This document shows positions 12,320 through 53,890 of a stretch of DNA of 64,000 bases, piece by piece. The stretch comes from Patescibacteria group bacterium (GTDB lineage: Bacteria > Patescibacteriota > Patescibacteriia > 2-01-FULL-39-33), in the NCBI GenBank assembly GCA_041649575.1, contig JBAZMW010000003.1, positions 122,102-186,101 on the forward strand, read 5' to 3'. The position numbers and the translations under genes were made by a program. The notes under the pieces were generated by a model that made no database searches, was not told where the DNA came from, and was given only the letters and a program-made list of their open reading frames with translations. Positions within the stretch are counted from its first letter, which is position 1. The number at the start of each line of letters is the position of its first letter.

Positions 12320-15300
12320 TTAACGCATAACTCCCAAACAACATTCATTGCCGCTGGCCAGTCCCTTGGTGATTATCCATAAACCGGGCTTGTCGTCCGG
12401 ATGAGCCGTATCCTTTTCACAAGCATTAGAATTACTATTGCCTTCCGAACCTCCGACCTCTGAACAAGTCTTCCAATTGGAATCGTTTGTCGGACGACAT
12501 TGACCAAAACAGCAACCGGTACGACCGCTGGCATCGGCCGTGGATTTATCCTTGGAGATTACCCAGCTGCCGGAGAGATAACTAAGAGGAGTGTTGGGAT
12601 TATAATAAGAAACAAAACAAATTTTATTGCTATTATAATCACAGACGCTAGCGCCATTAATACTACTGCAATTTAAACGACCATAAGAGGCCGGGTTGGG
12701 CAATTTGACTTGAGCATTGACCAAATCGGCGTCTCTGACGCAACCAACCGTATTATTACTGCCAACGGATTCATAGCCACAAGCATTGGTTGATCCGGTG
12801 ACCCCGGCTTCAGCAGCATTTTTGGGGCCACCAGCCGGCAAAAAGCAGTTTTGGGTAACCGACTGAACACCCGAACCAGACAAAGGGCCATACTCAACGT
12901 TTGGATCAAAGGGATTATGGCTAATCAAAGCCTCGGTGTACTCGGCCCAACCATCATTATTATTGTCTCGATCGGCCTGGCTAAGCCAATAACCCACCGC
13001 TATCTGATTTTGTGTCAGGGTCTCAAGAGCAATATAGCGCTGGGCCTTGTCTTTGTCAGTAGAACCATAATTCCAACCCGGTTTGATGGTATAACTGCGC
13101 ATCAAGCGATCAAAAGTCAAGTGAATCAATTCGTTACGGTCAGAAACTGACATTTGAGAAACCGGACTAATGGTTTTTAATAGTGGCGCTTTAATGTCAA
13201 TTTCGCTTGATAACTTAAAAGACCAAGTAAAATCATCGCCAAAACCAGAAACGGCAAAAATCGGAGTTGAAGAACTATAACTAATGACTCGATTACCAAG
13301 ACTGTAACAATTGCTAATGCCAATTCCTCCACTACAAATTATGCCTTCATTTAGATTGTAAGCAGTTCGACCCGATTGACCATTGCCATTTTGTGATTTG
13401 CCCTGAGCCAGCCCAACCCGCTGGCCATCATTATCCAAATAATAGTCAAAGCTACCATTAAAAGCGTTTTTGGACATATCCACCAAACCCGAGGCAGAGG
13501 TTCTGGCGAGCGGATAGAAAACGGTTTTAGAGCCAATGGTTTTTTGACAACGACCATGGCCATCACTAGCGCCTCCCCACTGAACGCATTTGGCGTCGGC
13601 ACTATCTATTAGATCAGAGGAGATTAAATTAATGGAATATGAGGTTGAAGTGGCAATCTCTCCGGCAGCCAAGCTGGCTATGGGCCAACAAGTCATCTCA
13701 TCGCCGCAGCTATTAGTCGCTCCACAAGAAGCGCTTGGCTTTAGACCAACGGTGTGATACTGATTGGAAAATTCCAAAACAAACTGGTCGTTATTAAGAT
13801 TTTGCCAAGTGTTATCGCTTTGTCTGAGACCAACTTTTATACTATCGTGCGTTATCGATAGAGGGTTGATGGCCTCGTTGAAGGTAACCTGAAAAATAGT
13901 ATTTCTAAAAGGGTCGGCTAACCCCTTAACCGCTCTTTGGCTAGAGGCGTCCTGCGCCGGAGTAATATTGGAAAAAACTACTGACGCTGGTGTATTTTTG
14001 CCAGTAAATCTTAAATTATATCTATTGGCTATAGAACCGGTGGTCTTGGTTTGCAAATCGCTACCAGCTCCAGCTTCAAAAATATTAGAAGCTATCAGCT
14101 TGTTTTTTATCGCCTGCCTATCGGTAGTGGCATTATTAGTGACTGCGATATCTTTACCAAGAATATAAGTATTGATCGCATTATTATTTTCCAAAATTTC
14201 AATTTTGTCGCCGGCCTGAGAAGCTGTGACATTAAAAGTCCAGTTAGTAACGCCGCTGGGCGAAGCAGCCAGAATAAACGTCAAACCATAGGGACCGATA
14301 TTAACCGTGCGACTAGAGGCGGAATATGGGCCATTATTAACATCGTTCATACCGCCAGGCCAATTGACATCAACTTTATTATTATTAGCGTCAATAGAGA
14401 CAACGACAGCGCCGCTAGCTGAACCACCATAGCTGCCAGTAAGACTGGCGGCTGGAGCATTAGGATTGGTGCTTGATGGTTGTGTGTAACCTTGATCAAC
14501 CTGGGGGGTGATAGTATTAAGAACCGTTAAGTTGAACTTGCTAACCGTGGGGGCGGAGGGAGAACTATAAACATCACCCTCGCCGTCGGGATAAGGATAA
14601 ACACCAGTAATATCGACTATCTCCGGCGGATCTAAGTCTAATTCTCCATTGGTAGTAAAATCCCAAAGATATTGTTTATTGATCAGGGAATTGAAAACCG
14701 AACGATCCGGTTCTTGAACCGATCTGACGCCTTCCTGCAAAGTCACCTGAAAGCGGCGATTAATTTTATCTTCCGCGCCCAGATAGGTCTCTGGCGTAAA
14801 AACAAAAGTCTTGTTGTCACTACTGGCAACCATCGTATTGTCGTAGCTGTCGAAACCAAAAGGATCGGTACTGGGAACGCAATTATTCTGATTGTCGAGT
14901 AAACAAATTTTAACATTTTTTATTCTTTCGTTGTCGCACCTACCATCACTATTAGAGTCATCACAAATGGTATCGGATTTAATTGGTACTTTAAAAGTAA
15001 CCGCTATAATTGTGTTGATTGGCACCTCTGTCTGGCCCGGGGTCGGATAAACGCTTTCGATTGGTCCGCGCCCAATACCCCAGCGACCGGGATCAATCGT
15101 CGGGCCACCGGGAGTGGTTCCCGGACCGCCGCCAAAGGTGGCGCCGGTTAGTATTCTTAAAACAAAAGTTACAATACTGAAAGCCGAAAGAATAATAATA
15201 AAGCCAATAATCGCTTGGGTCATTATCTTTTTGGCCTTTTCGATTTTGCTTTCTTCGCCCGCGGCCGTCATCCATAAGAAACCGGCGTAAAGAATCAGTA

Positions 15301-15553
15301 GCAACAAAATAATTCCTAAAACGCCTAAAATCGCCTGGATAATTCTGGCTATCACTACCCTCAAATCGGTCTGGGGCAAAGCCGAATTAAGGTTGCTTAG
15401 GCCAAAATTAGTATCGACGGGATTGGCCGGAGAAGCTGCTGCTAACTGCGGCACAGCTACTAGTAACAAAAAAACTACCAAAAAAATTGCCAAAAACAGC
15501 TTTCTGGTAGTTAGCGACGACCTTTGCATGGAAAAAAGTCGCGACTTAATCAT
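12320..15553 (-). CDS. large (1077 aa) secreted/surface protein, paralogous N-terminal pilin-like module
   Basis: The N-terminal approx 130 aa parallels the 3297-aa protein (DTNFGL.., LILYAGFLWMTAAGEESKIEKAKKIM..SAFSIVTFV). The remainder is a Cys-containing, Asn/Ser/Thr-rich ectodomain. It sits 35 nt upstream of the giant gene. Confidence 0.8.
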   Translation of the reverse strand: MIKSRLFSMQRSSLTTRKLFLAIFLVVFLLLVAVPQLAAASPANPVDTNFGLSNLNSALPQTDLRVVIARIIQAILGVLGIILLLLILYAGFLWMTAAGEESKIEKAKKIMTQAIIGFIIILSAFSIVTFVLRILTGATFGGGPGTTPGGPTIDPGRWGIGRGPIESVYPTPGQTEVPINTIIAVTFKVPIKSDTICDDSNSDGRCDNERIKNVKICLLDNQNNCVPSTDPFGFDSYDNTMVASSDNKTFVFTPETYLGAEDKINRRFQVTLQEGVRSVQEPDRSVFNSLINKQYLWDFTTNGELDLDPPEIVDITGVYPYPDGEGDVYSSPSAPTVSKFNLTVLNTITPQVDQGYTQPSSTNPNAPAASLTGSYGGSASGAVVVSIDANNNKVDVNWPGGMNDVNNGPYSASSRTVNIGPYGLTFILAASPSGVTNWTFNVTASQAGDKIEILENNNAINTYILGKDIAVTNNATTDRQAIKNKLIASNIFEAGAGSDLQTKTTGSIANRYNLRFTGKNTPASVVFSNITPAQDASSQRAVKGLADPFRNTIFQVTFNEAINPLSITHDSIKVGLRQSDNTWQNLNNDQFVLEFSNQYHTVGLKPSASCGATNSCGDEMTCWPIASLAAGEIATSTSYSINLISSDLIDSADAKCVQWGGASDGHGRCQKTIGSKTVFYPLARTSASGLVDMSKNAFNGSFDYYLDNDGQRVGLAQGKSQNGNGQSGRTAYNLNEGIICSGGIGISNCYSLGNRVISYSSSTPIFAVSGFGDDFTWSFKLSSEIDIKAPLLKTISPVSQMSVSDRNELIHLTFDRLMRSYTIKPGWNYGSTDKDKAQRYIALETLTQNQIAVGYWLSQADRDNNNDGWAEYTEALISHNPFDPNVEYGPLSGSGVQSVTQNCFLPAGGPKNAAEAGVTGSTNACGYESVGSNNTVGCVRDADLVNAQVKLPNPASYGRLNCSSINGASVCDYNSNKICFVSYYNPNTPLSYLSGSWVISKDKSTADASGRTGCCFGQCRPTNDSNWKTCSEVGGSEGNSNSNACEKDTAHPDDKPGLWIITKGLASGNECCLGVMR

Positions 15554-17870: not shown

Positions 17871-18497
17871 TTATTTATATTCTGGTGAATTAAAAACTGT
17901 CAGGCGAGTAAAGGGCCAACCTCTCAACCAAGTACGACCAATGATGAAATCGCGTTTAACCGGACCAAAAACTCGAGAATCAAGACTCTGGTCGCGGTTA
18001 TCTCCCAGTAAGAAATATTCATCATTATTTAAAGTGACATTGCTATAGCCTTCGAAGGGCAAATCGGTTTCCATGCCCGGCATGAGATACTCTTCGGTTA
18101 GGGGACCACTAAAACTACCACTGGTAATAAAAACTCGTCCCGACTTGATCTCCACCCTGTCTCCCGGCAAACCCACAACCCTCTTAATAAAATATTGACT
18201 AGGATCTTTGGGGTATTTAAAAACAACTATATCGCCACGTTTGGGTTCGGCGAACCGGTAACTAATCTCGTCGATTATGAGGTACTCATGATCATAAAAA
18301 TTCGGCTCCATGGAAGCACCTTTCACATAGAAAGGCTGAATCAGGAAATAACGAATCGGTAAAATAATAACCAGAGAAATGATCGAGACTTTGACCATTT
18401 CCCAAATAAACTCGACAACCGCCTTGGTTTTTGATCTTCTTACAACTGGCGGGTAGCCGGTCAAACCTAAATTATCATTCGGATCAAAATTATCCAT
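17871..18497 (-). CDS. lepB: signal peptidase I
   Basis: GASMEPNF (catalytic Ser box), RGDIVVF, KRVVGLPGD, YFLLGDNRDQSLDSR boxes. Confidence 0.85.
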   Translation of the reverse strand: MDNFDPNDNLGLTGYPPVVRRSKTKAVVEFIWEMVKVSIISLVIILPIRYFLIQPFYVKGASMEPNFYDHEYLIIDEISYRFAEPKRGDIVVFKYPKDPSQYFIKRVVGLPGDRVEIKSGRVFITSGSFSGPLTEEYLMPGMETDLPFEGYSNVTLNNDEYFLLGDNRDQSLDSRVFGPVKRDFIIGRTWLRGWPFTRLTVFNSPEYK

Positions 18498-18697
18498 GGT
18501 TTGGACTTTTCCCCTTTTTATTAGCGGAAAAATAATATTACTTGATATTTAATCTTATTATAACACAAAATCAATATTTTACAATAGCTAAAATAATTAA
18601 TTTCAAGCATTACTATAACATTTTTCCTTGGCAAATTTCAAGTTATGGTTTATAATGATAATATTGCTAAAATTTTTAATCTAACCAAAAAATAATA

Positions 18698-23886: not shown

Positions 23887-23962
23887 TGGTGGACGCCGAC
23901 GGGATCGAACCGCCATCTCTCCTGGTGCTAGCAGGCCGCTCTACCAATTAAGCTACACGTCC
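23887..23962 (-). tRNA. tRNA-like gene, possibly degenerate; anticodon loop CUAGCAC gives apparent anticodon AGC
   Basis: A 76-nt cloverleaf can be folded by hand: T-loop GGTTCGATCC, D-arm GCTT/GAGC, CCA encoded. There is a G.G mismatch at 7:66 and a G.A at 27:43. A34 and A3:U70 are both unusual for a bacterial tRNA-Ala, so the identity is uncertain and it may be a pseudogene. Confidence 0.5.
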
Positions 23963-39085: not shown

Positions 39086-39535
39086 ATGAAAATAATCAAT
39101 AAAAACAAAGAGGGTCTGTTCAATTACCAGGTACTGGAAAACTTCGAGGCCGGCGTTGTTCTGACCGGCCCGGAAGTCAAATCGGTCAAGAGCGGACAGG
39201 TCAGTCTCAAGGGCAGTTATATTCGACTGGACAAAAATAATGAAGCCTGGCTGATAAATTGCCATATTTCTCCCTACCAACCGGCGGCCGGCAGTGTCAA
39301 AAATTATGAGCCAACCCAGCCGAGAAAACTGCTACTAAAAAAGAGGGAGCTGCTTTCGCTGGTGGGCAAAAGCAAGCAAAGCGGCTTGACAATTATACCA
39401 ACCAGTGTATATACTAGAAAAAGATTAATTAAGGTGGGTCTGGCTCTGGCCAAAGGCAAACGAGAAATCGACAAACGCGAAACCATCAGAAAACGAGAAG
39501 CCGAGCGCCAGATCCAAAGAACCTTAAAAAGATAA
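39086..39535 (+). CDS. smpB: SsrA-binding protein SmpB
   Basis: ..GVVLTGPEVKSVK.., ..WLINCHISPYQ.., and a basic C-terminal tail; 149 aa. Confidence 0.9.
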   Translation: MKIINKNKEGLFNYQVLENFEAGVVLTGPEVKSVKSGQVSLKGSYIRLDKNNEAWLINCHISPYQPAAGSVKNYEPTQPRKLLLKKRELLSLVGKSKQSGLTIIPTSVYTRKRLIKVGLALAKGKREIDKRETIRKREAERQIQRTLKR

Positions 39536-39566
39536 AAGTGCTTAACGGTTATTTGATAATAATTCT

Positions 39567-39958
39567 GGGGATGTTTTGATTCGATAGCTTGAAATAGCCA
39601 AGAGGCAGGCCGAGATTGGCAATTGCTCGTTAACTAACAGCCAAACATATAAGTGCCAAAAACTTATTAGCTAAAGTCAAAACTGCTTTTAGCGGTTTAG
39701 CTTTGGCGCCAGCTGTTGCCTAAACAGGCTTAACAGCCATCGCCTTGCCGACGCCTAATAGGCAAATAAGCGGTGTTATATTTTTAGGCTCGACCGGAAC
39801 CATAGTCTGGAGTTCTGGTTAAAATTTTGACCAGACCGTAGGCCGCCAGTGTTTTGCTTCTTTCCAATTGGCGGCTGAAACCCAAAGAAGCAAAAGCCTG
39901 TAAACCGCTGGGCCAATTTTACAGCTAGACAGGAGCTCATTACTCCTCATCTCCACCA
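39567..39958 (+). ncRNA. ssrA: tmRNA (ssrA)
   Basis: The 5' GGGGAUGUUUUGAUUCGAUAGC pairs with the 3' ..CAUCUCC-A-CCA acceptor, including the G3:U70 Ala identity pair, and CCA is encoded. An internal tag-like frame ends ..GLALAPAVA* before TAA (about 39660-39745). The T-arm is AGGAG-CUCAUUA-CUCCU, which is an atypical T-loop. It lies immediately downstream of smpB. Confidence 0.8.
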
Positions 39959-41195: not shown

Positions 41196-44100
41196 TTAAG
41201 CTGTCACTACCTTATCTTGTAAAGGCCGAACCGCCTCTATTACTTTTTTCAAGACAGCGGCGGGATTTTTACCGGCATAAGGAGCCGAGCGGCTGACCGC
41301 CTCGCCAGTGCCCCCCTGATGGCTGGCTTCCATCACCAGTTCGGCGGGGTTGATTCGGACATCGATATTACTCTCTGCCAAAGTAAACTGCAGGACACCT
41401 TTGGTCACCTTGGCCGCCGAGGCCTGGCCAGTTATACCGGCCTCAGAAAGAATCTTGGCAACTTCTTTGCTGGGAGCGGTGCCGGCTTCAACCAGTCTAG
41501 TTAACTTAACCCAGCTTTCAAGGTTTGGAGAGTTTAAGACTTCAGTACCGCTAATTAGCTTGCCAACCGCCGAGTCGGGAGCGACTTCTCCGCCAGCAAA
41601 AGTCAGAACCTTTTTGGCCAAATCGGCGCCATGACTTTCTACCAAACCGTTAAGCGTCTCGCCAGGAACAACTTTGGGGTTCCCGCTATAGAAACTAACC
41701 ACTTCTTTGGCCACACCCTTGACTCCCGATGATAAAATTTCGGCCGCTCGGCCTGGTTCAAGTCCGGCCTCATGCGCCTGACCCATCAGGTCGTAGGCGG
41801 ACTGATCTAAACTGACACCAGAACCTTTGACCAAGCCGACTACCTGACGCAAATAAGCATTATTAGACTCTATTTGCGATAGAGTTTTCTCGCTTAGCTT
41901 GCCGGCGGCCTGTAAAACCTTTCCTGTATCACCGGTTTTCGGATCAAAAAAGGTGCTGGCCACTAATTCATTAAACTTATCATTACCGGCTAGTTTGGCC
42001 AGATCTTCAGGAGTGACATGATCGATATTAGCCGGTAAACCAAACTCGGTTGGACTTTTGGCAACCGCGTCTTTGATGGAATCAACCAAATAGGTAATCT
42101 TGCCTTCACGAAAGACAGGTAGCTTTTTGAGAGCTTCCGAAGTCATTTTACTAATATCTACATCCTTCGGCAGTCCAAGTTCGGCGGGATAGGTCTGGCC
42201 GCTTTCTATGGCCTTTTTGACTGTTGATCCGAGCGCTGCTTCGCATTTCTTTTCGATAACTCCCCAGACAGTATGCGAACCTTTAGCCTCAACTCCTTCG
42301 ACGACTTCCAGCGCTTGCTCAAATTCAGTCAATTTTTCCGGCGCTTCCGGCCCAGGCGCGGTTTCCGTCGTGGCAGATTCTGCTGGCGCGGCACCTGGGG
42401 TATGTTCTGTTGGCGCACCGCCCGAAGCGGCTTCTGGCGCACCGGCGTCCGGCACTCGCGGAGCTCCTTCTGCTGGTGGGTTGCTCCCTTCAACTGTTGG
42501 TTGCTCTGCCGGCGCGGCGCCAGGAGTATGTTCTGCTGACGCTCCACCAGGAGCGGCTTCTGGCGCACCGGCGTCTAGAACTCGCTGAGCTCCTTCTGCT
42601 GGTGGCTGGCCTTCCGGCGAAACGCCGGCATGAGGGGCTTCCGCACCGCTTCCGCCGCTTCCGGCTTCAGCGGCGCCAGTGGCCGCGCCATGACCACGGA
42701 GCCATTGCCAAGGCTGAATACCGACAACCAGGCCAGCGGCGGCGGCTATCACGCCGCGTTGTATTTCTTTTCTTCTTTCAGCTCGGCCGGTTTGCTCTTC
42801 AGCTTGATGGGAAGTGCTAATATAAAAATCCAATTGATTAGACAAGGCATCGGCCAAAGAATAGCCGCTGGTATCAATGGCAGTCAATCTCTCCTCCATT
42901 CTAGCCAAACTGGCTTGATACATTTGATCAATAACCGGCTTCATTCTATCGCCAAAAACATCTACTTGACGCTTGCCTTTTCTTTCGGCCAAGGCCGTTA
43001 TTCTGGCCAACTCTTCCTTTAAATCCTTATCGCTTAAACTTCCAAACTTTTTTTCTAACCAAGCTTTGGCAGCTTTAGGATCTTTCCTTTTCTCTTTAGC
43101 GTATTCTTTATAAATCTTCTGGGCTAATCCTTTATCTCCAAAACGTTTAGTAAATCTTTCCAGAGCGGCGTCAACACCCATGGCGGTACCGGTACCGCCA
43201 AGTATTCTTCTGGCAAAAAAGACAGCGGTCAGCAACGGCGCCGAAGCGGCGAAAGAAGTGGCAACGGCCGGAGTGGCCAAAGCCACAGCGGCTCCCAACA
43301 AAGCGCCGGAAACAATCAGTCTGCCAGTGGCATGACGTTGCCACCATCCTTTAAGTCTTTCTCCTCTGCTTTTTTCCTTACCTTCAAACTCGGCCCAGAC
43401 TAGTTGGTTTTCCTTATCATACAAATCAACCAGTCCCTGAGCTAGACGATCTGGAAACATGGCCAGAGGACTAAGTTCACCGGTCTGTACTTTGGATCGG
43501 ATCGACTCTTGCAAAGTCGCTTCATAAGAACGCCTTAACTGCTCTAACTTCTGCTCGCCCTTCTTGCCGCGGAATTCGGATTTGCCAATAAGTTTCATCC
43601 TCTCTCGCCTGGCTTGATAATAGGCCTTGCGGGCTTGATCTAGGGTTGGTTTGTCTTCTTCAGTCTCAATTATTATAGGTCCTTCACCAGTTTTATCTGA
43701 TGGAGGAAAAGGAGCGGCATCATCTTCCTCTTCATGAGACTTTAGTGTCGATTCTTCCGATTCATCTTCTAATTCATCTTCCGGCTTCTTTCCTGATTCC
43801 TCAAGCTCACGCACAAGACGTTCAGCCTCAGCTAGATCAAGAGGTGCTGACTCTGACTCTAATGGAGGCGCTATTAATTCCACATCAAGAACCGACTCAA
43901 TCCAAGTCGCGTATGCCTTATTATCGACAAAATTAAAGGTACGTATATAGGGTTTTTCTCCCTCTTCCACTAAACCAAGAAATTTTTCTTCATAGGTCGC
44001 TGATAAATAAGTGACTCTTATCATGCTCCCTGGCTTAATACCCCTAAATTTTTCCAAAAGTCTTTCTGTTCTTTCGGCCGGACTTTCCTCTGGCAACGGT

Positions 44101-47042
44101 GAAGGTCTTTCTGCTTCTTCGTCTGGATTTTCACCCGACTCCGGAGCTGGCGGCGGTGGAGGAGGGAGAACTTCCCCAGATAAATCCCCAAGCGGTGCTT
44201 CTGAATCATCTGGCCGCATCACTTCAACGCTCTCTATTCTATTGGTATTTTCTTGCCTGCCATCTTCAAAAAGCAACAGCATCCCGGCTGTGGTATCCAC
44301 CAATCCCCTGAAGTCTCCGATAAAACTCGATCCGTCCGTACAGACCCCTGCTAGTTTATCGCCAGGCTTACAACCGCGAAGTACTGCAAGTACTCTTTCT
44401 ATTCTTTCTTTATCTTTTTTATCTTTATCTTCGGCGTCAGACTCTACCGGCGCAGGCCTAGGCGTTTCAACCGCCTCACTGGTCGCCGTCACCCTAGCTC
44501 TAACAATCTCGCCACCCGGCTTAGTAAAACCCATAGTAACAACCGCAGCAACTTTTAGATTACGGCCCTTGGGACCTTCAGTAAATGTAACCTCATGATA
44601 CTTCTCATTAATATTATCGCCCAGCTGAACTAGCCAAAGTCTAAAACCAAAACTTTGCATTAACCCTGATAAATATCCGACTTTTGCGGTTTCAAAAACG
44701 GGACCATTAACCGCATCACAATATTCTCTGCCAATTTCATCTACCAAAACTTGCACCGCGTGCTCTCTGCTTTCTGTTTCTATTTTGTCTTGTAATCCTC
44801 TAGCGCCAGCAGCTAGCTGTCTCATCCCCAAGGCTTCTGCTCTGCTAAGAATTGCTGAGAGCATGGCTTGCAGCTCTTGCTGTTCCGCGCTAAGCTCTGC
44901 TTCTGCTTTTTCGTCTCCTTTTGGTGTTTCTGGCGCCGGCTGTTCGATGGCCGGTGCTAACACCTCAATCTTTGTTATTAAAGAAAGAAGGATCTTTTTT
45001 GGCTTTAAGTCACTTGGTTTGCCTTTGATCTTTACGCGGTCACCTTCCACTCCATCAAAAAAGCCCTCTTCTTTCATTCCGCCCAAATCTACCAAAATCC
45101 TAGTGCCAAGCGGCAAATCTTTTAATTGATCGGCTGTTACTTCCCGTCCTGACTGCTTAGCGCCTAACCGCTCGGCTACCTCATTCATTATTTGCAAAGC
45201 ACATTCCCGAACCAAACCTCTGGCGGTTTCTTCTTCGGCGCTTTCTTTTTTGGGCCGATAACGAGCCTCTTGGCCGGCTGCGTTTGCAGCTGTTCTAAAA
45301 AGAGTATTTTCTAAAGCAACCAAATCTTTAGGAAGAACTTTTTCTTCCTGCTCTGTCATGTTCTGGATGATTCTTTGTTTTGTTTCCTCTAAAGCCTTTT
45401 TGAAAGCAGGCAAAAATTTAGTCTCAGATTCACCACTTCCTTCTCCTTTTAATTCTTGATCTTTCGAGCCATTCACTTCGGCCATAATTTGCTCCGCGCA
45501 CGCGCTAACCAGATTTAGAACAGCCGGCTCCTCGGCATGCTTCCAGCCTTTTGTCGCCCTGATAGTTTTGTCGAGAATCGACTTTTCTAATTTATCTTTT
45601 TCTTCCGGCTTAATCCTTCTTCTCTCACTCTTCATTCTTTTGACTATCTCCTCTCGCGTCTGGTCTAATGCCTCTTTAAAAGCTTCCAAGAATGCCTCAA
45701 ACTCATTTTTTTCCTCCCCCTTTCTGATAATTTCAGTGTCAATGCTTTCGCCAACCTCGCACTGGGCATTACCCTGTAATAGAATACGACAATTTTTGGC
45801 TTTTCTAATAGCCAGCTTAGCGCCATCCTCAACGACAAATCTGCTATCTGTCGCACTCTCGACTTCCATGGATATCCCGGCTCCGATCTTTTCTCTGCGC
45901 CTGTCGTTCATCTCTCTTCTTCTTACTGTTTTGAGCCCCGATCCTGGCTTTTCTTCTATAGATCCGCCATTCTTCCCGGTGGTATCAAGCTCGGCTTCAA
46001 TTTGTTCAGCGAAATTTTGGGATGCTTGGCGCACCAGGTCTTTTTCGGCTGCCGACTGCGCCTCCAAGCCGGTTTCTTTTTGGACGTCACGCTCAACTGT
46101 CCCAAAAAATATAGTTTTTTGCATATCATTGGCTTCTTGCGCATCATCAGCGCCAGCTCTAATTATGGTTATAAATTCTTGCCTTCTTCCATTTAAAACC
46201 CTCTCAAAAACAGGCAAAAACCTGTCTCTAAATTCCGGTCTGATTTCTGGCGACTCGGCCGCTGGAGCCCCTCCTTTTATTTCTCCTTTAAACGCGGCAT
46301 GGGTTTCACGCAGCCCCTCTAATTCAGCTACAACTGCTTCTAACTCTTTATATAAAGGATTAAATTCATCTCTTAAAGCTTCTATATCTTCACCTATACT
46401 CTCTAAAGCCTGCACACTAAAAACCTTATTTATTAAAAAACCCAAAAAACGTTCAATTATTTCAATCTCCTGATTAATGATTTTTTGAGCCCACTCCGGC
46501 TTGGCCTCTACCTTGGCCCTGACACTCGATAAAATAGTTTTGCCTTCAACTATGCCTGATCTCTCTTTGGCCGCGTTAACTTCTGCTCTAATTTGATCAA
46601 GAGCAATTTCGGCTTCTGCCGTCTCGGCCGGTGGCGGCGGGATTTCAACGCCAACTACGGGGAGATGTAATCCTAAAACTGATCTGGCATTATCAATAAC
46701 CCACCGAGCATTTGCCTTGTTGATTACTCCACCACGCCCTTCTTTCTTGAAAGTGTCAGACATATCCAAAATGTGCTCCAGTCCGGCTAAGAGCTCATCT
46801 AATTCCGGCGCCTGCAGGTCGGACAAATCGGACAAAGCATTAAAAGAATCTACAGCAGCCCTGAATTCTTCTACTTCTGGTTCCTTTCTTCCTGAAAGAT
46901 TAGTCTTTATTCTCAAAAGAGCCCTATTTATTCTTTTTCTTTTTTCCTTGTTCTCTTTTCTCTCGGCCTCTGTTGCCTCTCCTTCGGCTCCGGGCTCAAG
47001 CTCGTCTTCTTTGTCTGGAGTTTTTGGTTTATAATCTCCCAT
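41196..47042 (-). CDS. giant (1948 aa) acidic, coiled-coil/low-complexity protein with central TM segment, tandem Pro/Ala-rich repeats and repeated small beta-domains
   Basis: Single ORF; E/K-rich, predicted coiled-coil N-terminal half; three copies of a small module (..LRGCKPGDKLAGVCTDGSSFIGDFRGLVD.. / ..FRGIKPGSMIRVTYLSATYEEKFLGLVEEG.. / ..LPLGTRILVDLGGMKEEGFFDGVEGDRVKIKG..); a hydrophobic stretch LIVSGALLGAAVALATPAVATSFAASAPLLTAVFFA; a tandem approx 36-aa repeat (GAQRVLDAGAPEAAPGGASAEHTPGAAPAE x2), which is a 108-bp DNA repeat at about 42366-42590; and a C-terminal approx 400-aa globular region. Confidence 0.75.
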   Translation of the reverse strand: MGDYKPKTPDKEDELEPGAEGEATEAERKENKEKRKRINRALLRIKTNLSGRKEPEVEEFRAAVDSFNALSDLSDLQAPELDELLAGLEHILDMSDTFKKEGRGGVINKANARWVIDNARSVLGLHLPVVGVEIPPPPAETAEAEIALDQIRAEVNAAKERSGIVEGKTILSSVRAKVEAKPEWAQKIINQEIEIIERFLGFLINKVFSVQALESIGEDIEALRDEFNPLYKELEAVVAELEGLRETHAAFKGEIKGGAPAAESPEIRPEFRDRFLPVFERVLNGRRQEFITIIRAGADDAQEANDMQKTIFFGTVERDVQKETGLEAQSAAEKDLVRQASQNFAEQIEAELDTTGKNGGSIEEKPGSGLKTVRRREMNDRRREKIGAGISMEVESATDSRFVVEDGAKLAIRKAKNCRILLQGNAQCEVGESIDTEIIRKGEEKNEFEAFLEAFKEALDQTREEIVKRMKSERRRIKPEEKDKLEKSILDKTIRATKGWKHAEEPAVLNLVSACAEQIMAEVNGSKDQELKGEGSGESETKFLPAFKKALEETKQRIIQNMTEQEEKVLPKDLVALENTLFRTAANAAGQEARYRPKKESAEEETARGLVRECALQIMNEVAERLGAKQSGREVTADQLKDLPLGTRILVDLGGMKEEGFFDGVEGDRVKIKGKPSDLKPKKILLSLITKIEVLAPAIEQPAPETPKGDEKAEAELSAEQQELQAMLSAILSRAEALGMRQLAAGARGLQDKIETESREHAVQVLVDEIGREYCDAVNGPVFETAKVGYLSGLMQSFGFRLWLVQLGDNINEKYHEVTFTEGPKGRNLKVAAVVTMGFTKPGGEIVRARVTATSEAVETPRPAPVESDAEDKDKKDKERIERVLAVLRGCKPGDKLAGVCTDGSSFIGDFRGLVDTTAGMLLLFEDGRQENTNRIESVEVMRPDDSEAPLGDLSGEVLPPPPPPAPESGENPDEEAERPSPLPEESPAERTERLLEKFRGIKPGSMIRVTYLSATYEEKFLGLVEEGEKPYIRTFNFVDNKAYATWIESVLDVELIAPPLESESAPLDLAEAERLVRELEESGKKPEDELEDESEESTLKSHEEEDDAAPFPPSDKTGEGPIIIETEEDKPTLDQARKAYYQARRERMKLIGKSEFRGKKGEQKLEQLRRSYEATLQESIRSKVQTGELSPLAMFPDRLAQGLVDLYDKENQLVWAEFEGKEKSRGERLKGWWQRHATGRLIVSGALLGAAVALATPAVATSFAASAPLLTAVFFARRILGGTGTAMGVDAALERFTKRFGDKGLAQKIYKEYAKEKRKDPKAAKAWLEKKFGSLSDKDLKEELARITALAERKGKRQVDVFGDRMKPVIDQMYQASLARMEERLTAIDTSGYSLADALSNQLDFYISTSHQAEEQTGRAERRKEIQRGVIAAAAGLVVGIQPWQWLRGHGAATGAAEAGSGGSGAEAPHAGVSPEGQPPAEGAQRVLDAGAPEAAPGGASAEHTPGAAPAEQPTVEGSNPPAEGAPRVPDAGAPEAASGGAPTEHTPGAAPAESATTETAPGPEAPEKLTEFEQALEVVEGVEAKGSHTVWGVIEKKCEAALGSTVKKAIESGQTYPAELGLPKDVDISKMTSEALKKLPVFREGKITYLVDSIKDAVAKSPTEFGLPANIDHVTPEDLAKLAGNDKFNELVASTFFDPKTGDTGKVLQAAGKLSEKTLSQIESNNAYLRQVVGLVKGSGVSLDQSAYDLMGQAHEAGLEPGRAAEILSSGVKGVAKEVVSFYSGNPKVVPGETLNGLVESHGADLAKKVLTFAGGEVAPDSAVGKLISGTEVLNSPNLESWVKLTRLVEAGTAPSKEVAKILSEAGITGQASAAKVTKGVLQFTLAESNIDVRINPAELVMEASHQGGTGEAVSRSAPYAGKNPAAVLKKVIEAVRPLQDKVVTA

Positions 47043-47067
47043 ATAAATTAATTATTTTTATAATCAA

Positions 47068-47385
47068 TTATTTTAAATTCTCGCGCCAAGCCGCGACATC
47101 GCCGGCCAGCTGTTCTTTGAAATTGGTGACCTCTTCCAAAATTATCGCCTGCAGATCAACCTTGCCGTTCAAAAACTGTCCGATTTCTTCGTCGGAGACG
47201 CCTTTGGCGGTGAGTTTGTCAAACTCCAACTGATCCGGCTCGGAGAACTCATCCATCAGACGGAAAGAAACGCGGTCGCTAACCACCTCGTTTAGTTTGG
47301 TGAGTAAAACTTGTTTTTTGGCTTCATCCAGGTTTTCCAGGCCCAAAATGTTGAAAACATTCTGATCCAAAAAGAGTAAATTCAT
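47068..47385 (-). CDS. small acidic hypothetical protein, co-operonic upstream partner of the 1948-aa gene
   Basis: 105 aa, pI clearly acidic (many D/E); 25 nt upstream of the giant gene on the same strand. Confidence 0.5.
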   Translation of the reverse strand: MNLLFLDQNVFNILGLENLDEAKKQVLLTKLNEVVSDRVSFRLMDEFSEPDQLEFDKLTAKGVSDEEIGQFLNGKVDLQAIILEEVTNFKEQLAGDVAAWRENLK

Positions 47386-47602
47386 AAATTTTATTTATTT
47401 TTTATTGTTAATTATTGAATTTTGTTTAAAATAACAGTATTCCAGCTAGAGCTTAATCTGGCTGTCTGAATATATTATACCAAACAAAGAGAATTGGTGA
47501 AAGGGTGGCAAAATAAATAATTATTAACTAATTTTATTTATACTTTTTGGCTAAAATTAGATAATATTCTTGATAAAAAAGAAGCTTTTTTCTCAACTAC
47601 TA

Positions 47603-47631
47603 TTGACAAATTATTTATGGTATGCTATAAT
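47603..47631 (+). promoter_or_regulatory. perfect sigma70-type promoter TTGACA-17-TATAAT (cassette copy 1)
   Basis: TTGACA at 47603-47608, a 17-nt spacer, TATAAT at 47626-47631; embedded in the conserved context TACTATTGACAAA...GTATGCTATAAT. Confidence 0.75.
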
Positions 47632-47716
47632 GAGTAGTTCGGTAAGTAACCGAAAGCACATCACAAAGGCAGCCCTGGTAATGACACCGGGGTTCGCAAG
47701 AGAAAAGGAGAAGACG

Positions 47717-48697
47717 ATGGGTACGGACACAGGAATAGAGGACGATGTGGTGATTATTGGTGAGGACACCGGCATCGCTGACACCGGCATCGCTGACACA
47801 AAGACGAGTCGGCCGAAGCGTAAAGTCGGAATCTGGCGGATCGTGCTGGGCCTGATCGGCCTGGCGCTCATCGCCTTCGCGGCATTGACCGCGTACGGCC
47901 TGATCGTCAAGACCGACGCGATTGACCGGCGTGTCGTCGTGCTGGAAAATCGCGTCGACGGTTTCGACGAACGCATCAAGGCCGGTGACGAGGCGGTCGA
48001 GGACATCTCCAAAGCCACCGACGATCTGTGGAGGCGAATGGCGAATGTCGAGAAACGCTTCGACAAGGATGGAGAATTCGCGAAGACCGTGGCCGCGGTT
48101 GCCAAGACCGCCGAAGACGTGACGGCGCTGCAAGCCGCGGTCGATGAAATCCCCGATGCCATGGCCGAGGCCACAGCTGGAATCGAAGGCCGGGTCAAAG
48201 CCCTCGAAGACGGCGCCGCGCAGGCACAGGAGAGGGCCAGCCGCGAGCTCCTGATGCTCAAGGTTGCCGAGATCCGCCGCGCGAATCCGGCGAGCGATGT
48301 CAGCGCCATGAGCGACGCGGACATTGGCAAGACGCTGGCTGGCAAGGGCGGCAACGATTTTCGCAAGAAGATTGAGGCCGCATACGTCAGCCTCGGAGCC
48401 AAGCCTGTCGTCACGGCACCAGCTCCGGCTCCAGCACCGGCACCAGCGCCAGCGGTAAATCTGGCTGAGGTAGAACGCCGGCTGGACGCGGCCGAGAAAG
48501 AAGTAAAACTTGTCGGGCAAGCCGCCAAAACCTTGGCGACGAATCCTGACAAGCCGAAGCACCTGGTGCGTGGCGCCAAGGCGAGGGCGCTCAAGCTGTT
48601 GGTGGATGTCCCCGACGACTTGCCACCCGCCTCCGCAAGACCGGCATCCCCGAAGAAGGACAACGTCATCCGGCCGGAGTTCGGGGACCGGCCGTAA
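47717..48697 (+). CDS. GC-rich island gene: coiled-coil protein with N-terminal TM helix and (PA)n repeat
   Basis: Start chosen at the ATG with strong RBS (AAAAGGAGAAGACG-ATG) downstream of the promoter; the track ORF starts upstream of the promoter at 47570. TM WRIVLGLIGLALIAFAALTAYGLIV; long Ala/Glu-rich helical region; PAPAPAPAPAPA run. Confidence 0.6.
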   Translation: MGTDTGIEDDVVIIGEDTGIADTGIADTKTSRPKRKVGIWRIVLGLIGLALIAFAALTAYGLIVKTDAIDRRVVVLENRVDGFDERIKAGDEAVEDISKATDDLWRRMANVEKRFDKDGEFAKTVAAVAKTAEDVTALQAAVDEIPDAMAEATAGIEGRVKALEDGAAQAQERASRELLMLKVAEIRRANPASDVSAMSDADIGKTLAGKGGNDFRKKIEAAYVSLGAKPVVTAPAPAPAPAPAPAVNLAEVERRLDAAEKEVKLVGQAAKTLATNPDKPKHLVRGAKARALKLLVDVPDDLPPASARPASPKKDNVIRPEFGDRP

Positions 48698-48780: not shown

Positions 48781-49160
48781 GAGAGATTTTGCTTTTATAT
48801 ATTGACTAAACAAGACAAAACTGATAAAATTATTTTTGATATTTATGGATTACTGCCCCCGCCAGAATGACTCTGTCGGGCTGGCGCCCGACTGAACGGC
48901 GTTCAGCCGTTCGGGCGGGGCTCAGTCTTGCCCCGTAGAATACTGCTAAAGCAGTAGCGCCAGAGGCGCTATTCTACGGGGTGAAGTTAGAGCGCTCCCC
49001 CTGTCACGGAAGAGGGTCGCCGTAGGCGACGGGCAGAAGCGAGCCATGAGCAAAGCGAATGAAACGAGCGTAGATGAATGCGACCATGGGAGCATTCGGC
49101 TCTGCCAGGAAACATCGGGTGCAACCCGCGACCGTCAAACTTTTTACAAGTTAATATTTA

Positions 49161-49234
49161 TGGATTGGTAGCTCAGTTGGTTAGAGCGCTCCCCTGTCAC
49201 GGGAGAGGTCGCGGGTTCGAGTCCCGTCCAGTCC
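49161..49234 (+). tRNA. tRNA-Asp (GUC)
   Basis: Acceptor GGATTGG/CCAGTCC, D-arm GCTC-AGTTGGTTA-GAGC, anticodon arm CTCCC-CTGTCAC-GGGAG, T-arm GCGGG-TTCGAGT-CCCGT, discriminator G; CCA not encoded. It is followed by the hairpin ATCACCC-TTGC-GGTGATTTTTGTTTT. Confidence 0.85.
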
Positions 49235-49413
49235 GCTGGATAAAACAAAAATCACCCTTGCGGTGATTTTTGTTTTACTACACGAAGTGGAGAGGGGCTC
49301 GAACGGGTTGGCAGCGAGGCAAATCCGAAGGATGCAGCCGAGCGTCAAAAATTGCGAGCTGGCGCAGCAATTTTTGCCAACCCAGGACAGAGTGAGCAAA
49401 GCGAACGCCGAGA

Positions 49414-49430
49414 AGTCCCGTCCAGTCCGC
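49414..49430 (+). repeat. 17-nt direct repeat of the tRNA-Asp 3' end (AGTCCCGTCCAGTCCGC), att-like scar
   Basis: Exact copy of tRNA positions 49219-49235, about 180 bp downstream. Confidence 0.7.
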
Positions 49431-53374: not shown

Positions 53375-53890
53375 TTATTTTATTCCCAAAATTTCAAAAA
53401 TCATTTTCAGAATAACATAGGAGAGAAAAATAATCACCAGGCCGGCAATCGCCCAGATCATGGTGTTTTTGCCTTTAGTCACCCGGCCGGAATCGCCGCC
53501 GGAAACCATCCAGAGCAAGCCGCCGTAAATGAAAGCGATCAAAGCCAAGACTCCGGTGAACCCCAAGGCGGCGGTGATAATGTTTTTGGTGATGACTTGC
53601 ACCGCCTCAATGCCTTTTTTGCCGCCGGTAATGCCCTCCAGGGGATCTTTCAGACTCTGGGCCGAACCAGCGCTGCCGCCAGAAACACCTGTACCTTCTG
53701 GAGCGGAAACACCTGTACCTTCGGCGACACATTCCCCAACCTCAGAAAAAGGGTCGGCAAAACTACAGATTTGACCAGGGCCGCAATCGGCTTTAGTAGT
53801 ACAAGCTAAAACGATATTAGTGAGAGATAAAAATAAAAAAACAGAAAAACCAAAGAATGTTAATATCAACCAACCGCTTTTTCTTTTCAT
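53375..53890 (-). CDS. small secreted TrbC/VirB2-like (T4SS-pilin-like) protein
   Basis: Signal peptide, Cys-containing approx 60-aa segment, then a C-terminal two-helix hairpin LIAFIYGGLLWMVSGGDSGRVTKGKNTMIWAIAGLVIIFLSYVI. This shares the (Y)xG(F/L)LWM(T/V)xxG..K..SAF/LSY pattern with the N-termini of the two giant proteins. Confidence 0.65.
   Translation of the reverse strand: MKRKSGWLILTFFGFSVFLFLSLTNIVLACTTKADCGPGQICSFADPFSEVGECVAEGTGVSAPEGTGVSGGSAGSAQSLKDPLEGITGGKKGIEAVQVITKNIITAALGFTGVLALIAFIYGGLLWMVSGGDSGRVTKGKNTMIWAIAGLVIIFLSYVILKMIFEILGIK

Follow-up and report, generated by a model that had tools for sequence, protein, structure and literature searches.

The window, here the whole 64,000-nucleotide stretch of patescibacterial DNA analysed, contains on its reverse strand a giant ORF encoding a protein of 1948 aa and, 25 nt upstream on the same strand, a small ORF encoding a protein of 105 aa; infC-rpmI-rplT are the neighbours of this pair. 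Both ORFs are real and intact. An identical 1948-aa ORF is present on an independently assembled Logan contig of 8,985 bp, making an assembly chimera or a frameshift unlikely. A sequence-only reading of the locus had proposed a very large protein and had named chimerism or frameshifting of the ORF as the finding that would speak against it; the second assembly makes the latter improbable. The giant protein is also acidic, as claimed, with glutamate, alanine and lysine accounting for 12.4%, 11.7% and 7.7% of its residues and with 335 D+E vs 264 K+R. The small acidic protein had been placed ahead of it in the same transcription unit, an arrangement that holds: the two genes probably form one unit, given the promoter-like site that precedes the small ORF by about 90 nt (10 of 12 consensus matches plus the TG), the 25-nt spacer and the lack of a convincing terminator within it. 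The GC content climbs to 0.55 over 42-43 kb, because a Pro/Ala tether is encoded there. The features of the locus, in window positions, are as follows.

41196..47042 (-), giant ORF, 1948 aa, 211 kDa, pI 5.07, ATG start, uninterrupted
41199..42287 (-), module B (aa 1586-1948), folded and mostly helical (AF2), predicted extracytoplasmic
42288..42674 (-), disordered Pro/Ala/Glu-rich tether (aa 1457-1585, pI 4.06), AF2 pLDDT <50, local GC peak
42379..42605 (-), tandem DNA repeat inside the tether, period 126 bp, 1.8 copies, 86% matches
42675..43661 (-), module A (aa 1128-1456, pI 9.76), conserved basic helical juxtamembrane domain with membrane segments
42693..42755 (-), last TM helix (aa ~1430-1450), predicted inside-to-outside orientation, motif 'ERxKxxxRKxxAxxAGxxxG'
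43212..43319 (-), Gly/Ala-rich, charge-free hydrophobic hairpin (aa 1242-1277), by hydropathy
43662..47042 (-), acidic, lineage-specific N-arm (aa 1-1127, pI 4.82), mostly helical in a low-confidence model, predicted cytoplasmic
43854..44057 (-), module 3 of the claimed beta-modules (aa ~996-1063; wider ~989-1066), 'RGIKPGS...', related to module 2
44193..44390 (-), module 2 (aa ~885-950; wider ~877-950), 'RGCKPGD...', related to module 3
44952..45134 (-), module 1 (aa ~637-697; wider ~629-700), marginal relation
45177..45761 (-), ~95-aa helical module, two tandem copies (aa 428-523 and 521-622), 34% identity over 89 aa, E 5e-9
45978..46250 (-), probable diverged third copy of the helical module (aa ~265-355), observed score reached in 4-7 of 1000 shuffles
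47068..47385 (-), small acidic partner ORF, 105 aa, pI 4.34, assigned indirectly to the DUF5663 family
47474..47501 (-), promoter-like site (TTCACC, 16 nt, TG-extended TATAAT), consensus match only

Module A was matched in most of 46 family representatives, and aa 1128-1456 align with 37 relatives. Its motifs 'EKxKxxWRxxxKxR', 'GTxxGxEAxLERxSKxxGxKGL' and 'ExARLRxLxxxKG' are all found in the window protein, and tblastn matches to loci L001-L013 had E values of 1e-10 to 8e-20. Outside its hydrophobic part it was modelled by AF2 with a pLDDT of 80-97, and it has no match in Pfam, NCBIfam or PDB. The hydrophobic, TM-like stretch noticed earlier was recovered by hydropathy (aa 1237-1277). The hairpin is modelled as helices (pLDDT 51-76) and, family-wide, is uncharged, with a mean length of 27 aa and 5.8 K/R per 17 aa just before it. 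The TM helix at aa ~1430-1450 was missing from the feature list of the sequence-only reading; its flanks, again family-wide, contain 4.9 K/R per 17 aa before the helix, and 2.5 K/R and 5.2 D/E per 38 aa after it. The lack of a signal peptide in the giant protein, the K/R-rich flanks preceding the hairpin and the last TM helix, and the acidic residues following the latter predict an N-in/C-out topology, with ~1240 aa in the cytoplasm and ~490 of the 1948 aa outside the cell. With a mean of only 27 uncharged residues, the hairpin may instead be a single pass, in which case the C-terminus would lie inside the cell.

The tether that follows module A had been described as containing a Pro/Ala tandem repeat of 108 bp, or 36 aa. 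The repeat exists, but its period was measured as 126 bp, corresponding to 2 x 42 aa (aa 1484-1518 vs 1526-1560, 77% identical). Tether repeats differ in copy number between samples of one relative, and one relative has a frameshift within its tether. The C-terminus had been called globular, and AF2 modelling (44-sequence alignment) agrees, with a pLDDT of ~89-97 over most of aa 1572-1948 and ~50-70 around aa 1770-1830; at its C-terminal end, module B is modelled as a sheet of five strands with one helix. Its first ~150 aa are conserved family-wide ('TYxIDAIKDxxxxxPxxFGL ... LSxExxxxIxxNN'), the window version of the 'TYxIDAIKDxxxxxPxxFGL' region being ITYLVDSIKDAVAKSPTEFGL. The C-terminal portion differs among subfamilies, and module B at full length is common only to P0003, P0004 and P0006. 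A LysM domain (PF01476) at the start of module B was considered and rejected: an hhalign comparison of the family motif with the LysM domains of neighbouring M23 peptidases gave only 17 columns at a probability of 61%, AF2 modelled helices only, and there was no Pfam match.

The N-arm has quite a different character. None of the 46 family representatives contains a homologue of its 1127 aa. Across the family, arm length ranges from 0 to ~1132 aa, with a median of 315, the window arm being the longest seen; the arm is net-acidic in 45 of 48 members, and that of the window protein has 227 D+E vs 162 K+R. Internal duplications are also present in six of ten other long members, independently of those in the window. 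Within this family, the N-arm is hypervariable in both sequence and length and expands through internal duplication. In the window protein, the two tandem copies of the ~95-aa helical module gave a Smith-Waterman score of 123, vs a shuffle mean of 33 (sd 6; z ~15); these repeats (aa 428-622) were absent from the earlier list, which featured three small beta-modules. Two of the latter, modules 2 and 3, are significantly related (BLAST E 1e-6; 0 of 1000 shuffles), but the relation of module 1 to module 3 is marginal (51 of 1000 shuffles) and that to module 2 is not significant. Their beta nature could not be established, because the single-sequence AF2 model of the arm, with a pLDDT of 39.6, is unusable. 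No copy of modules 1-3 was found in any other family member searched, and they are the least informative part of the protein because they are private to it. The protein had also been read as a coiled coil, possibly of a filament-forming kind. The arm is indeed predicted to be helical, but its longest helix in the same low-confidence model (pLDDT 39.6) is 29 aa, vs a heptad criterion of at least 100 residues, and no Pfam coiled-coil family matched the arm; a long coiled coil or a filament would be conjectural.

The small partner is most probably a DUF5663 protein, an assignment supported indirectly. The window ORF itself scores 18.6 bits against Pfam DUF5663 (PF18908), below the cutoff of 23.7, but its precomputed annotation is PF18908.7. 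In the two closest relatives, L020 and L052, the corresponding partner genes share 50% and 58% identity with it over 102-105 aa. It can also be aligned along its whole length with copies scoring above the cutoff, the orthologous neighbours in L004, L005, L006 and L010 (32-42 bits). The conservation of this partner, raised as a check by the sequence-only reading, was confirmed: a same-strand DUF5663 gene directly adjoins the family gene in 21 of the 24 loci for which both flanks could be inspected; it precedes the family gene in some subfamilies and follows it in others, at spacings of 11-50 nt. Compared with the window sequences, the partner of L020 and L052 is 50-58% identical, vs only 30-35% for the conserved modules of their big protein. 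The Pfam entry for DUF5663 records no function, the domain has no DNA-binding, sigma or enzyme signature, and a full-text literature search returned no paper mentioning it; no earlier description of its pairing with a membrane family is apparent.

An exhaustive HMMER search with aa 749-1948 as the query, with clustering at 50% identity, showed the family to comprise at least 46 clusters, 28 of them with E<=1e-10, with matches covering aa ~1128-1488 and/or 1638-1938. Loci were retrieved with a subfamily alignment and a hand-made degenerate DNA pattern, and all those from named genomes belong to Patescibacteria. The order module A - tether - module B is kept in homologues spanning the tether. 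The window protein, the largest family member sampled, has all the defining features: the module A motifs; the hairpin, TM helix, tether and module B core; and the adjacent DUF5663 gene. The giant gene and its DUF5663 neighbour are an undescribed two-gene module conserved across Patescibacteria, and the giant protein is not an isolated low-complexity oddity, given its partner and the conserved family formed by its C-terminal 820 aa. The neighbours elsewhere are uvrD-rsmA, uvrB-murE-like, rnc-smc-rpsP or mraZ-rsmH. Apart from the partner gene, the window neighbours had only isolated weak matches in related loci. These housekeeping neighbours, the absence of matches in the viral contigs searched and the lack of PADLOC or PHROG matches place the pair in a core cellular context and speak against a mobile element.

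The earlier statement that no function is recognisable holds for named functions, but the partner can be assigned to DUF5663 and the C-terminal 820 aa to a family of at least 46 clusters. Those 820 aa had no match in Pfam, NCBIfam, PHROG, PADLOC, PDB sequences or Foldseek, and Pfam, NCBIfam, PHROGs and PADLOC returned nothing for the whole protein, seven separate segments or relatives. Word-indexed protein searches with the giant and small proteins yielded self-matches only, a protein search with a 38-sequence alignment found nothing, its output being swamped by low-complexity candidates, and a PDB sequence search (full protein, aa 690-870, profiles A4 and A5) gave nothing credible. Further apparent identities were discarded. 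The E value of 1e-12 for TAL-effector repeats was the sum of ~8 weak repeat matches, every single stretch having E >=1.4, and a PDB match to protein A was an artefact of the same summing of weak repeat matches. A likeness of aa 700-860 to GrpE found no support in BLASTP against E. coli GrpE, with no alignment at E<=100, or in Pfam or PDB.

These features are consistent with an envelope-spanning, N-in/C-out anchor or scaffold, the basic core of which would bind the acidic DUF5663 protein; this function is tentatively proposed, with a probability of about 0.4. The N-arm and module A would face the cytoplasm, the hairpin dipping into the membrane or crossing it twice. The last TM helix would then cross the membrane and the Pro/Ala/Glu tether span the wall, placing module B within or beyond the wall, where it could fix the giant protein to an envelope structure, although no wall-binding domain was recognised in it. 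Module A, with its pI of 9.76, may dock the DUF5663 protein (pI 4.34), as suggested by their adjacency and charge, and the acidic arm, in which helical and small globular modules recur, could offer lineage-specific clients in the cytoplasm an extensible platform or act as a spacer for them. Of the earlier suggestion of a scaffold or cell-surface structure, a scaffold that connects a surface domain with an arm in the cytoplasm agrees with this anatomy; the cell-surface reading does not, given the missing signal peptide and the ~1240 aa predicted to be cytoplasmic.

It is possible, but somewhat unlikely, that the protein is instead an accessory or anchor of the patescibacterial T4SS-like DNA-translocation apparatus, its membrane core acting together with an ATPase of the VirD4/TraD type and with surface proteins that carry T4SS-pilin domains. 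An orphan VirD4/TraD-like ATPase (matching TraG-D_C, TrwB_AAD_bind and DUF87, and TraD/VirD4 in NCBIfam) adjoins the pair in five arrangements (L007, L008, L009, L018 and L030/L055/L057). In L052, the closest relative with context, a tandem array of five T4SS_pilin genes is found within 4 kb; the window has one T4SS_pilin gene 6 kb upstream of the pair and elsewhere encodes two giant proteins with T4SS_pilin domains. However, most loci have housekeeping neighbours only, no VirD4-like gene lies within the window, VirB4, VirB6 and VirB8 genes were not seen beside the pair, and neither the window protein nor 43 relatives matched any T4SS component (VirB/VirD4 or the Gram-positive equivalents) in Pfam or NCBIfam. 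Since genes with a T4SS_pilin domain abound in these loci (three in the window, five in L052), their proximity may be due to chance. A transmembrane signalling device of the anti-sigma or sensor type, with module B responding to a cue from the envelope or the host and DUF5663 being sequestered or released by the cytoplasmic core, is unlikely. The succession of cytoplasmic domain, TM helix, Pro-rich linker and extracellular domain is reminiscent of RsgI/SigI-type pairs, and the small cytoplasmic partner is tightly linked and better conserved than the big protein, but DUF5663 shows none of the signatures of DNA-binding, sigma or enzyme proteins, searches for domains of the anti-sigma, kinase or protease kind found none, and a hypervariable acidic arm of 0-1132 aa would be unexpected in a sensor.

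Patescibacteria are known for their small genomes and for symbiotic lifestyles, and the restriction of the family to this group, the divergence of the C-terminal part of module B among subfamilies and the tether repeats, variable even across samples of one relative, could all be accommodated by a surface adhesin or fibre for host-cell attachment, the cell-surface structure of the sequence-only reading. This seems very unlikely for a protein without a signal peptide, with only ~490 of 1948 aa predicted outside the cell and its giant repeat-rich part predicted on the cytoplasmic side; no adhesin, Ig or lectin domain was found in it, unlike the T4SS_pilin giants of the same window. The GC content of up to 0.55 over 42-43 kb, the 1127 N-terminal aa without a homologue and the frameshift inside the tether of one relative might be taken as signs of an artefact (a chimeric assembly, a pseudogene with a frameshift or a low-complexity stretch misread as an ORF), but this is extremely improbable: the second assembly carries the identical ORF, the GC rise is the Pro/Ala tether, which homologues span in the same A-tether-B order, long acidic N-arms are typical of the family, and a conserved partner gene ends 25 nt before the start codon.

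Patescibacteria account for a large fraction of bacterial diversity, and little is known of their cell organisation. An odd giant ORF can now be treated as a testable two-gene module with domain boundaries, two confidently modelled domains and a predicted topology. Its newness lies in the fact that no described family or solved fold matched, which does not imply a new mechanism, and many patescibacterial families are equally uncharacterised. If the protein is an envelope-spanning scaffold, it would provide a lineage-specific way of linking cell wall, membrane and cytoplasm.

The polar landmark proteins HubP/FimV follow a similar logic: they are membrane-anchored hubs in which a small domain lies on the wall side, while the cytoplasmic region is acidic, contains repeats, varies in length and is very long (PMC12918733). 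The likeness lies in the long acidic region, the window N-arm (pI 4.82) being predicted to occupy the same side of the membrane. HubP/FimV is, however, N-out with a signal peptide, whereas the giant protein is predicted to be N-in/C-out and has extra hydrophobic segments. According to Pfam, the N-terminal periplasmic LysM domain that follows the HubP/FimV signal peptide is absent from the window protein; the C-terminal TPR domain of FimV was not found in it with Pfam or NCBIfam, and no sequence relation was detected. To our knowledge, HubP/FimV proteins have no conserved DUF5663-like partner. A scaffold of this kind would be an independently evolved further example of a 'wall-tethered acidic hub'. 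More speculatively, and with considerable doubt, DUF5663 and the membrane family could constitute a Patescibacteria-specific envelope hub, independent of HubP/FimV and of inverted topology, positioning DNA-handling or division machinery (e.g. the orphan VirD4/FtsK-like ATPase, SMC or components of the dcw (division/cell-wall gene) cluster) in ultra-small cells, with the acidic arm setting the spacing or recruiting lineage-specific clients.

Other known proteins share parts of this design. HMW1 and HMW2 of the Mycoplasma terminal organelle are very large, acidic, proline-rich, repeat-bearing cytoskeletal proteins of a reduced-genome bacterium; the window protein resembles them in size, acidity, proline content and repeats, with no sequence similarity found, and we know of no counterpart in HMW1 or HMW2 of its TM core and extracellular domain. 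FtsN/DamX-type division proteins and RsgI-type anti-sigma factors begin in the cytoplasm and cross the membrane with a TM segment; a Pro-rich linker then spans the wall and leads to an extracytoplasmic domain at the C-terminus, a layout resembling that predicted here. No SPOR, RsgI_N or other domain defining these proteins was found in the window protein, which differs from them in having a much larger conserved juxtamembrane domain plus a hydrophobic hairpin.

The informative part of this gene pair is the conserved C-terminal core of the giant protein together with its DUF5663 partner, rather than the repeats. The giant ORF (41196-47042, minus strand, ATG start) runs for 1948 aa without interruption, and a 105-aa ORF (47068-47385, minus strand) lies 25 nt upstream of it. 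The giant protein is a 100% match to the NCBI MAG entry 'hypothetical protein WC518_03165 [Patescibacteria group bacterium]' (191,558-bp contig), and all 1948 residues are encoded again on an 8,985-bp Logan contig from a separate assembly (run SRR8542065). A chimera or frameshift in the giant ORF is therefore unlikely, both ORFs described in the sequence-only reading exist, and we give an artefact a negligible chance. That reading was also right to call the protein acidic (D+E 335 vs K+R 264, pI 5.07; E 12.4%, A 11.7%, K 7.7%); on the whole the observation holds, with some of its measurements in error. Inspection of the sequence between the two ORFs revealed no convincing terminator, and a promoter-like site precedes the small ORF by ~90 nt:

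47501-47474, minus strand: promoter-like site, TTCACC, 16 nt, TG-extended TATAAT

Word-indexed protein searches returned nothing beyond the giant protein itself. When 1.84 billion cluster representatives were scanned exhaustively with HMMER, aa 749-1948 matched 46 clusters, 28 of them with E<=1e-10, and these matches delimit two conserved modules, A and B. Thirteen genome loci were retrieved, every one of them in a Patescibacteria record (from Nomurabacteria, Parcubacteria and Campbellbacteria, plus some labelled Saccharibacteria), with 46 further metagenome loci from a DNA-pattern scan; the family gene is present in 53 of these 59 loci. No credible Pfam domain was found in the 43 relatives scanned, nor any NCBIfam match in the five tested, and the family is undescribed as far as these libraries show.

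Module A (aa ~1128-1456) begins with a helical N-part, followed by a very basic stretch (EKxKxxWRxxxKxR), a charge-free Gly/Ala-rich hydrophobic segment (aa 1242-1277 in the window protein; 27 residues on average family-wide), a polar conserved stretch (GTxxGxEAxLERxSKxxGxKGL), a soluble helical domain of ~130 aa (motif ExARLRxLxxxKG) and a final TM helix with ERxKxxxRK just before it. This extra TM helix, at aa ~1430-1450, is missing from the sequence-only reading. A Pro-rich linker of variable length leads to module B, whose first ~150 aa (TYxIDAIKDxxxxxPxxFGL ... LSxExxxxIxxNN) are kept family-wide, the entire 360 aa being common only to the closest subfamily (relatives P0003, P0004 and P0006). 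An AF2 model built with a 44-sequence alignment has a mean pLDDT of 77.7, with values of 80-97 in module A (dropping to 51-76 in the hydrophobic part), <50 in the linker and mostly ~89-97 in module B (~50-70 around aa 1770-1830), which is modelled as mostly helical with a C-terminal five-strand sheet and helix. Two L[ST]xExxxxIxxN[ND] helix motifs in module B (41823-42287, aa ~1660-1730) recall the TAL-effector LTPEQVVAIASNN motif and inflate whole-sequence E-values against TALE structures; every single match has E >1, and the TALE-repeat resemblance was rejected on testing, as were those to GrpE, LysM and polo-box. In one relative recovered from several metagenomes (L026 2900-2940, also L019, L030, L045 and L055), the family gene is frameshift-split within the Pro-rich tether, and the PPAEAV units after module B vary between samples (3 vs 4).

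The repeats proved different from their first description, which gave a 108-bp (36-aa) unit; the measured period corresponds to two 42-aa units that are 77% identical:

42379-42605: tandem DNA repeat, period 126 bp, 1.8 copies, 86% matches

Three related beta-modules had been claimed; modules 2 and 3 are indeed related (E 1e-6; 0/1000 shuffles reach the score), whereas module 1 is not significantly similar to module 2, and 51/1000 shuffles reach its score against module 3. Neither beta structure nor a long coiled coil is borne out by AF2 modelling of aa 1-1130 from the single sequence; the model is of low confidence (pLDDT 39.6) and has helices of <=29 residues. A helical module of ~95 aa, overlooked earlier, occurs twice in the N-terminal arm (aa 428-523 and 521-622; z ~15), probably with a third copy at aa ~265-355. 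No relatives of the N-terminal 1127 aa were detectable, family members included. Where the N-terminus is complete (51 members), the arm preceding module A measures 0-1132 aa (median 315); of the 48 arms long enough to score, 45 are net-acidic. The longest arm among sampled members is that of the window protein, and six of the ten other long members have internal duplications of their own. The 'giant' size is therefore a lineage-specific expansion of a variable arm on a conserved core.

The 105-aa protein is labelled DUF5663 in precomputed annotation and matches that Pfam family weakly (18.6 bits; cutoff 23.7); four of six partner copies tested pass the threshold, and each of the six can be aligned with the window partner over the full length. 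Among the 24 loci with sequence on both sides, 21 (L052 included) have a DUF5663 gene that directly adjoins the family gene on the same strand. Depending on the subfamily it lies upstream or downstream, at a distance of 11-50 nt; at locus L012, one ORF separates the two. The window partner shares 50% identity with its counterpart in L020 and 58% with that in L052, the two closest relatives, as against just 30-35% for the large protein in its conserved modules. The small acidic partner, a check on which had been proposed, is thus conserved, and the pairing is the strongest functional evidence available. Locus L008 has another DUF5663-like gene (18371-18688), ~7 kb away from the pair and with no family gene adjoining, so DUF5663 has paralogues. 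One subfamily has a conserved ORF of 145-198 aa, lacking Pfam and NCBIfam matches, after the DUF5663 gene (L024 9791-10228, L050, L053, L059, L030), which may be a third component of the module.

The giant protein has no signal peptide. Family-wide, there are 5.8 K/R per 17 residues in the flank before the hydrophobic hairpin and 4.9 in that before the last TM, and 2.5 K/R and 5.2 D/E per 38 residues after it; by the positive-inside rule, used to assign membrane topology, the layout is therefore predicted to be N-in/C-out. The N-arm and module A with its 130-aa domain would be cytoplasmic, the hairpin re-entrant or double-crossing, and the last TM helix would pass from inside to outside, placing the Pro/Ala/Glu tether and module B outside the cell. 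Acidic, Pro-rich tethers commonly serve as wall-spanning spacers in monoderm bacteria. The opposite charges of module A (pI 9.76) and the partner (pI 4.34) suggest that the partner docks on the basic core. From the topology, tether and charge pattern we therefore propose, with a probability of about 0.4, that the protein is an anchor or scaffold spanning the envelope, with an acidic platform in the cytoplasm that can expand; the scaffold suggested by the sequence-only reading is plausible, its function being one that we infer. The closest functional analogy is HubP/FimV, whose architecture comprises a TM region, an extensive acidic stretch in the cytoplasm and, on the wall side, a LysM-like domain (PMC12918733). 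The giant protein is not a member: no LysM or FimV domain was found in it, it has no sequence relation to these proteins and its predicted topology is the reverse of theirs.

Gene neighbourhood bears on the alternatives. In the window, the pair is convergent with infC-rpmI-rplT and divergent from a GC-rich gene whose product is a TM/coiled-coil protein. Neighbours at other loci are mostly housekeeping genes (uvrD with rsmA, uvrB with a Mur ligase gene, rnc with smc and rpsP, mraZ with rsmH, and a divergently transcribed LysM/M23 peptidase gene). Taken with the lack of PHROG, PADLOC and viral contig matches, such a setting favours a core cellular function over a mobile one. At L020 (8928-10721; closest relative P0003), a division/cell-wall cluster starts ~2 kb downstream of the pair, with mraZ, rsmH and a gene encoding a small TM protein. 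An accessory role in T4SS or DNA translocation would fit the orphan VirD4/TraD-like ATPase that adjoins the pair in five arrangements (L007, L008, L009, L018 and L030/L055/L057), three of them with these coordinates:

L007 1612-4350: VirD4/TraD-like ATPase, ~900 aa (DUF87, TrwB_AAD_bind, TraG-D_C)
L008 11597-14371: the same
L009 2129-4960: the same

Five small tandem T4SS_pilin genes also lie <4 kb from the pair in L052 (closest relative P0005; 35-2464, minus strand), and one T4SS_pilin gene 6 kb from it in the window. No other T4SS genes were noted beside the ATPase among the flanking ORFs, most of which have no annotation, and we consider this role unlikely. A transmembrane signalling pair is slightly less probable again, and a surface adhesin seems distinctly improbable. 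The anchor or scaffold is the reading that we prefer. Proteins of the FtsN/DamX and RsgI types have the same TM-linker-outside-domain layout, but none of their defining domains was found in the giant protein. The window encodes three T4SS_pilin proteins:

2391-12284, minus strand: T4SS_pilin (PF18895) protein
12320-15553, minus strand: T4SS_pilin (PF18895) protein
53375-53890, minus strand: T4SS_pilin (PF18895) protein

Two of them are giant, at 3297 aa (with Laminin_G_3, DUF4215 and Big_5 domains) and 1077 aa, and they look like pilin-anchored surface proteins.

Beyond the pair, GC content reaches 0.60 over 48-49 kb and forms a mosaic (0.38-0.60) from 48 to 55 kb:

47570-48697, plus strand: GC-rich gene for a TM and coiled-coil protein, 375-aa ORF with an (Ala-Pro)n run
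49162-49236: tRNA-Asp, with partial self-copies on both sides (48836-49430)

The GC-rich gene is overlapped by two antisense ORFs, each >350 aa, and contains a perfect sigma-70 consensus with TG at 47603-47631, within the 375-aa ORF; the Logan gene call begins at 47717 (326 aa), and the product has weak coiled-coil-type family matches only (EzrA, PspA, tape measure). An internal part of the tRNA-Asp is repeated at 48986-49015 and its 3' end is copied exactly over 17 nt at 49414-49430, 194 nt downstream; these copies may be scars of integration or excision at the tRNA. A tRNA-Ala called by ARAGORN at 23887-23962 (minus strand) has the anticodon AGC, unusual in bacteria, and scores lowest of the window's tRNAs against Rfam (44.1 bits). 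At 39086-39958, a full-length tmRNA (Rfam 111.6 bits) directly follows smpB.
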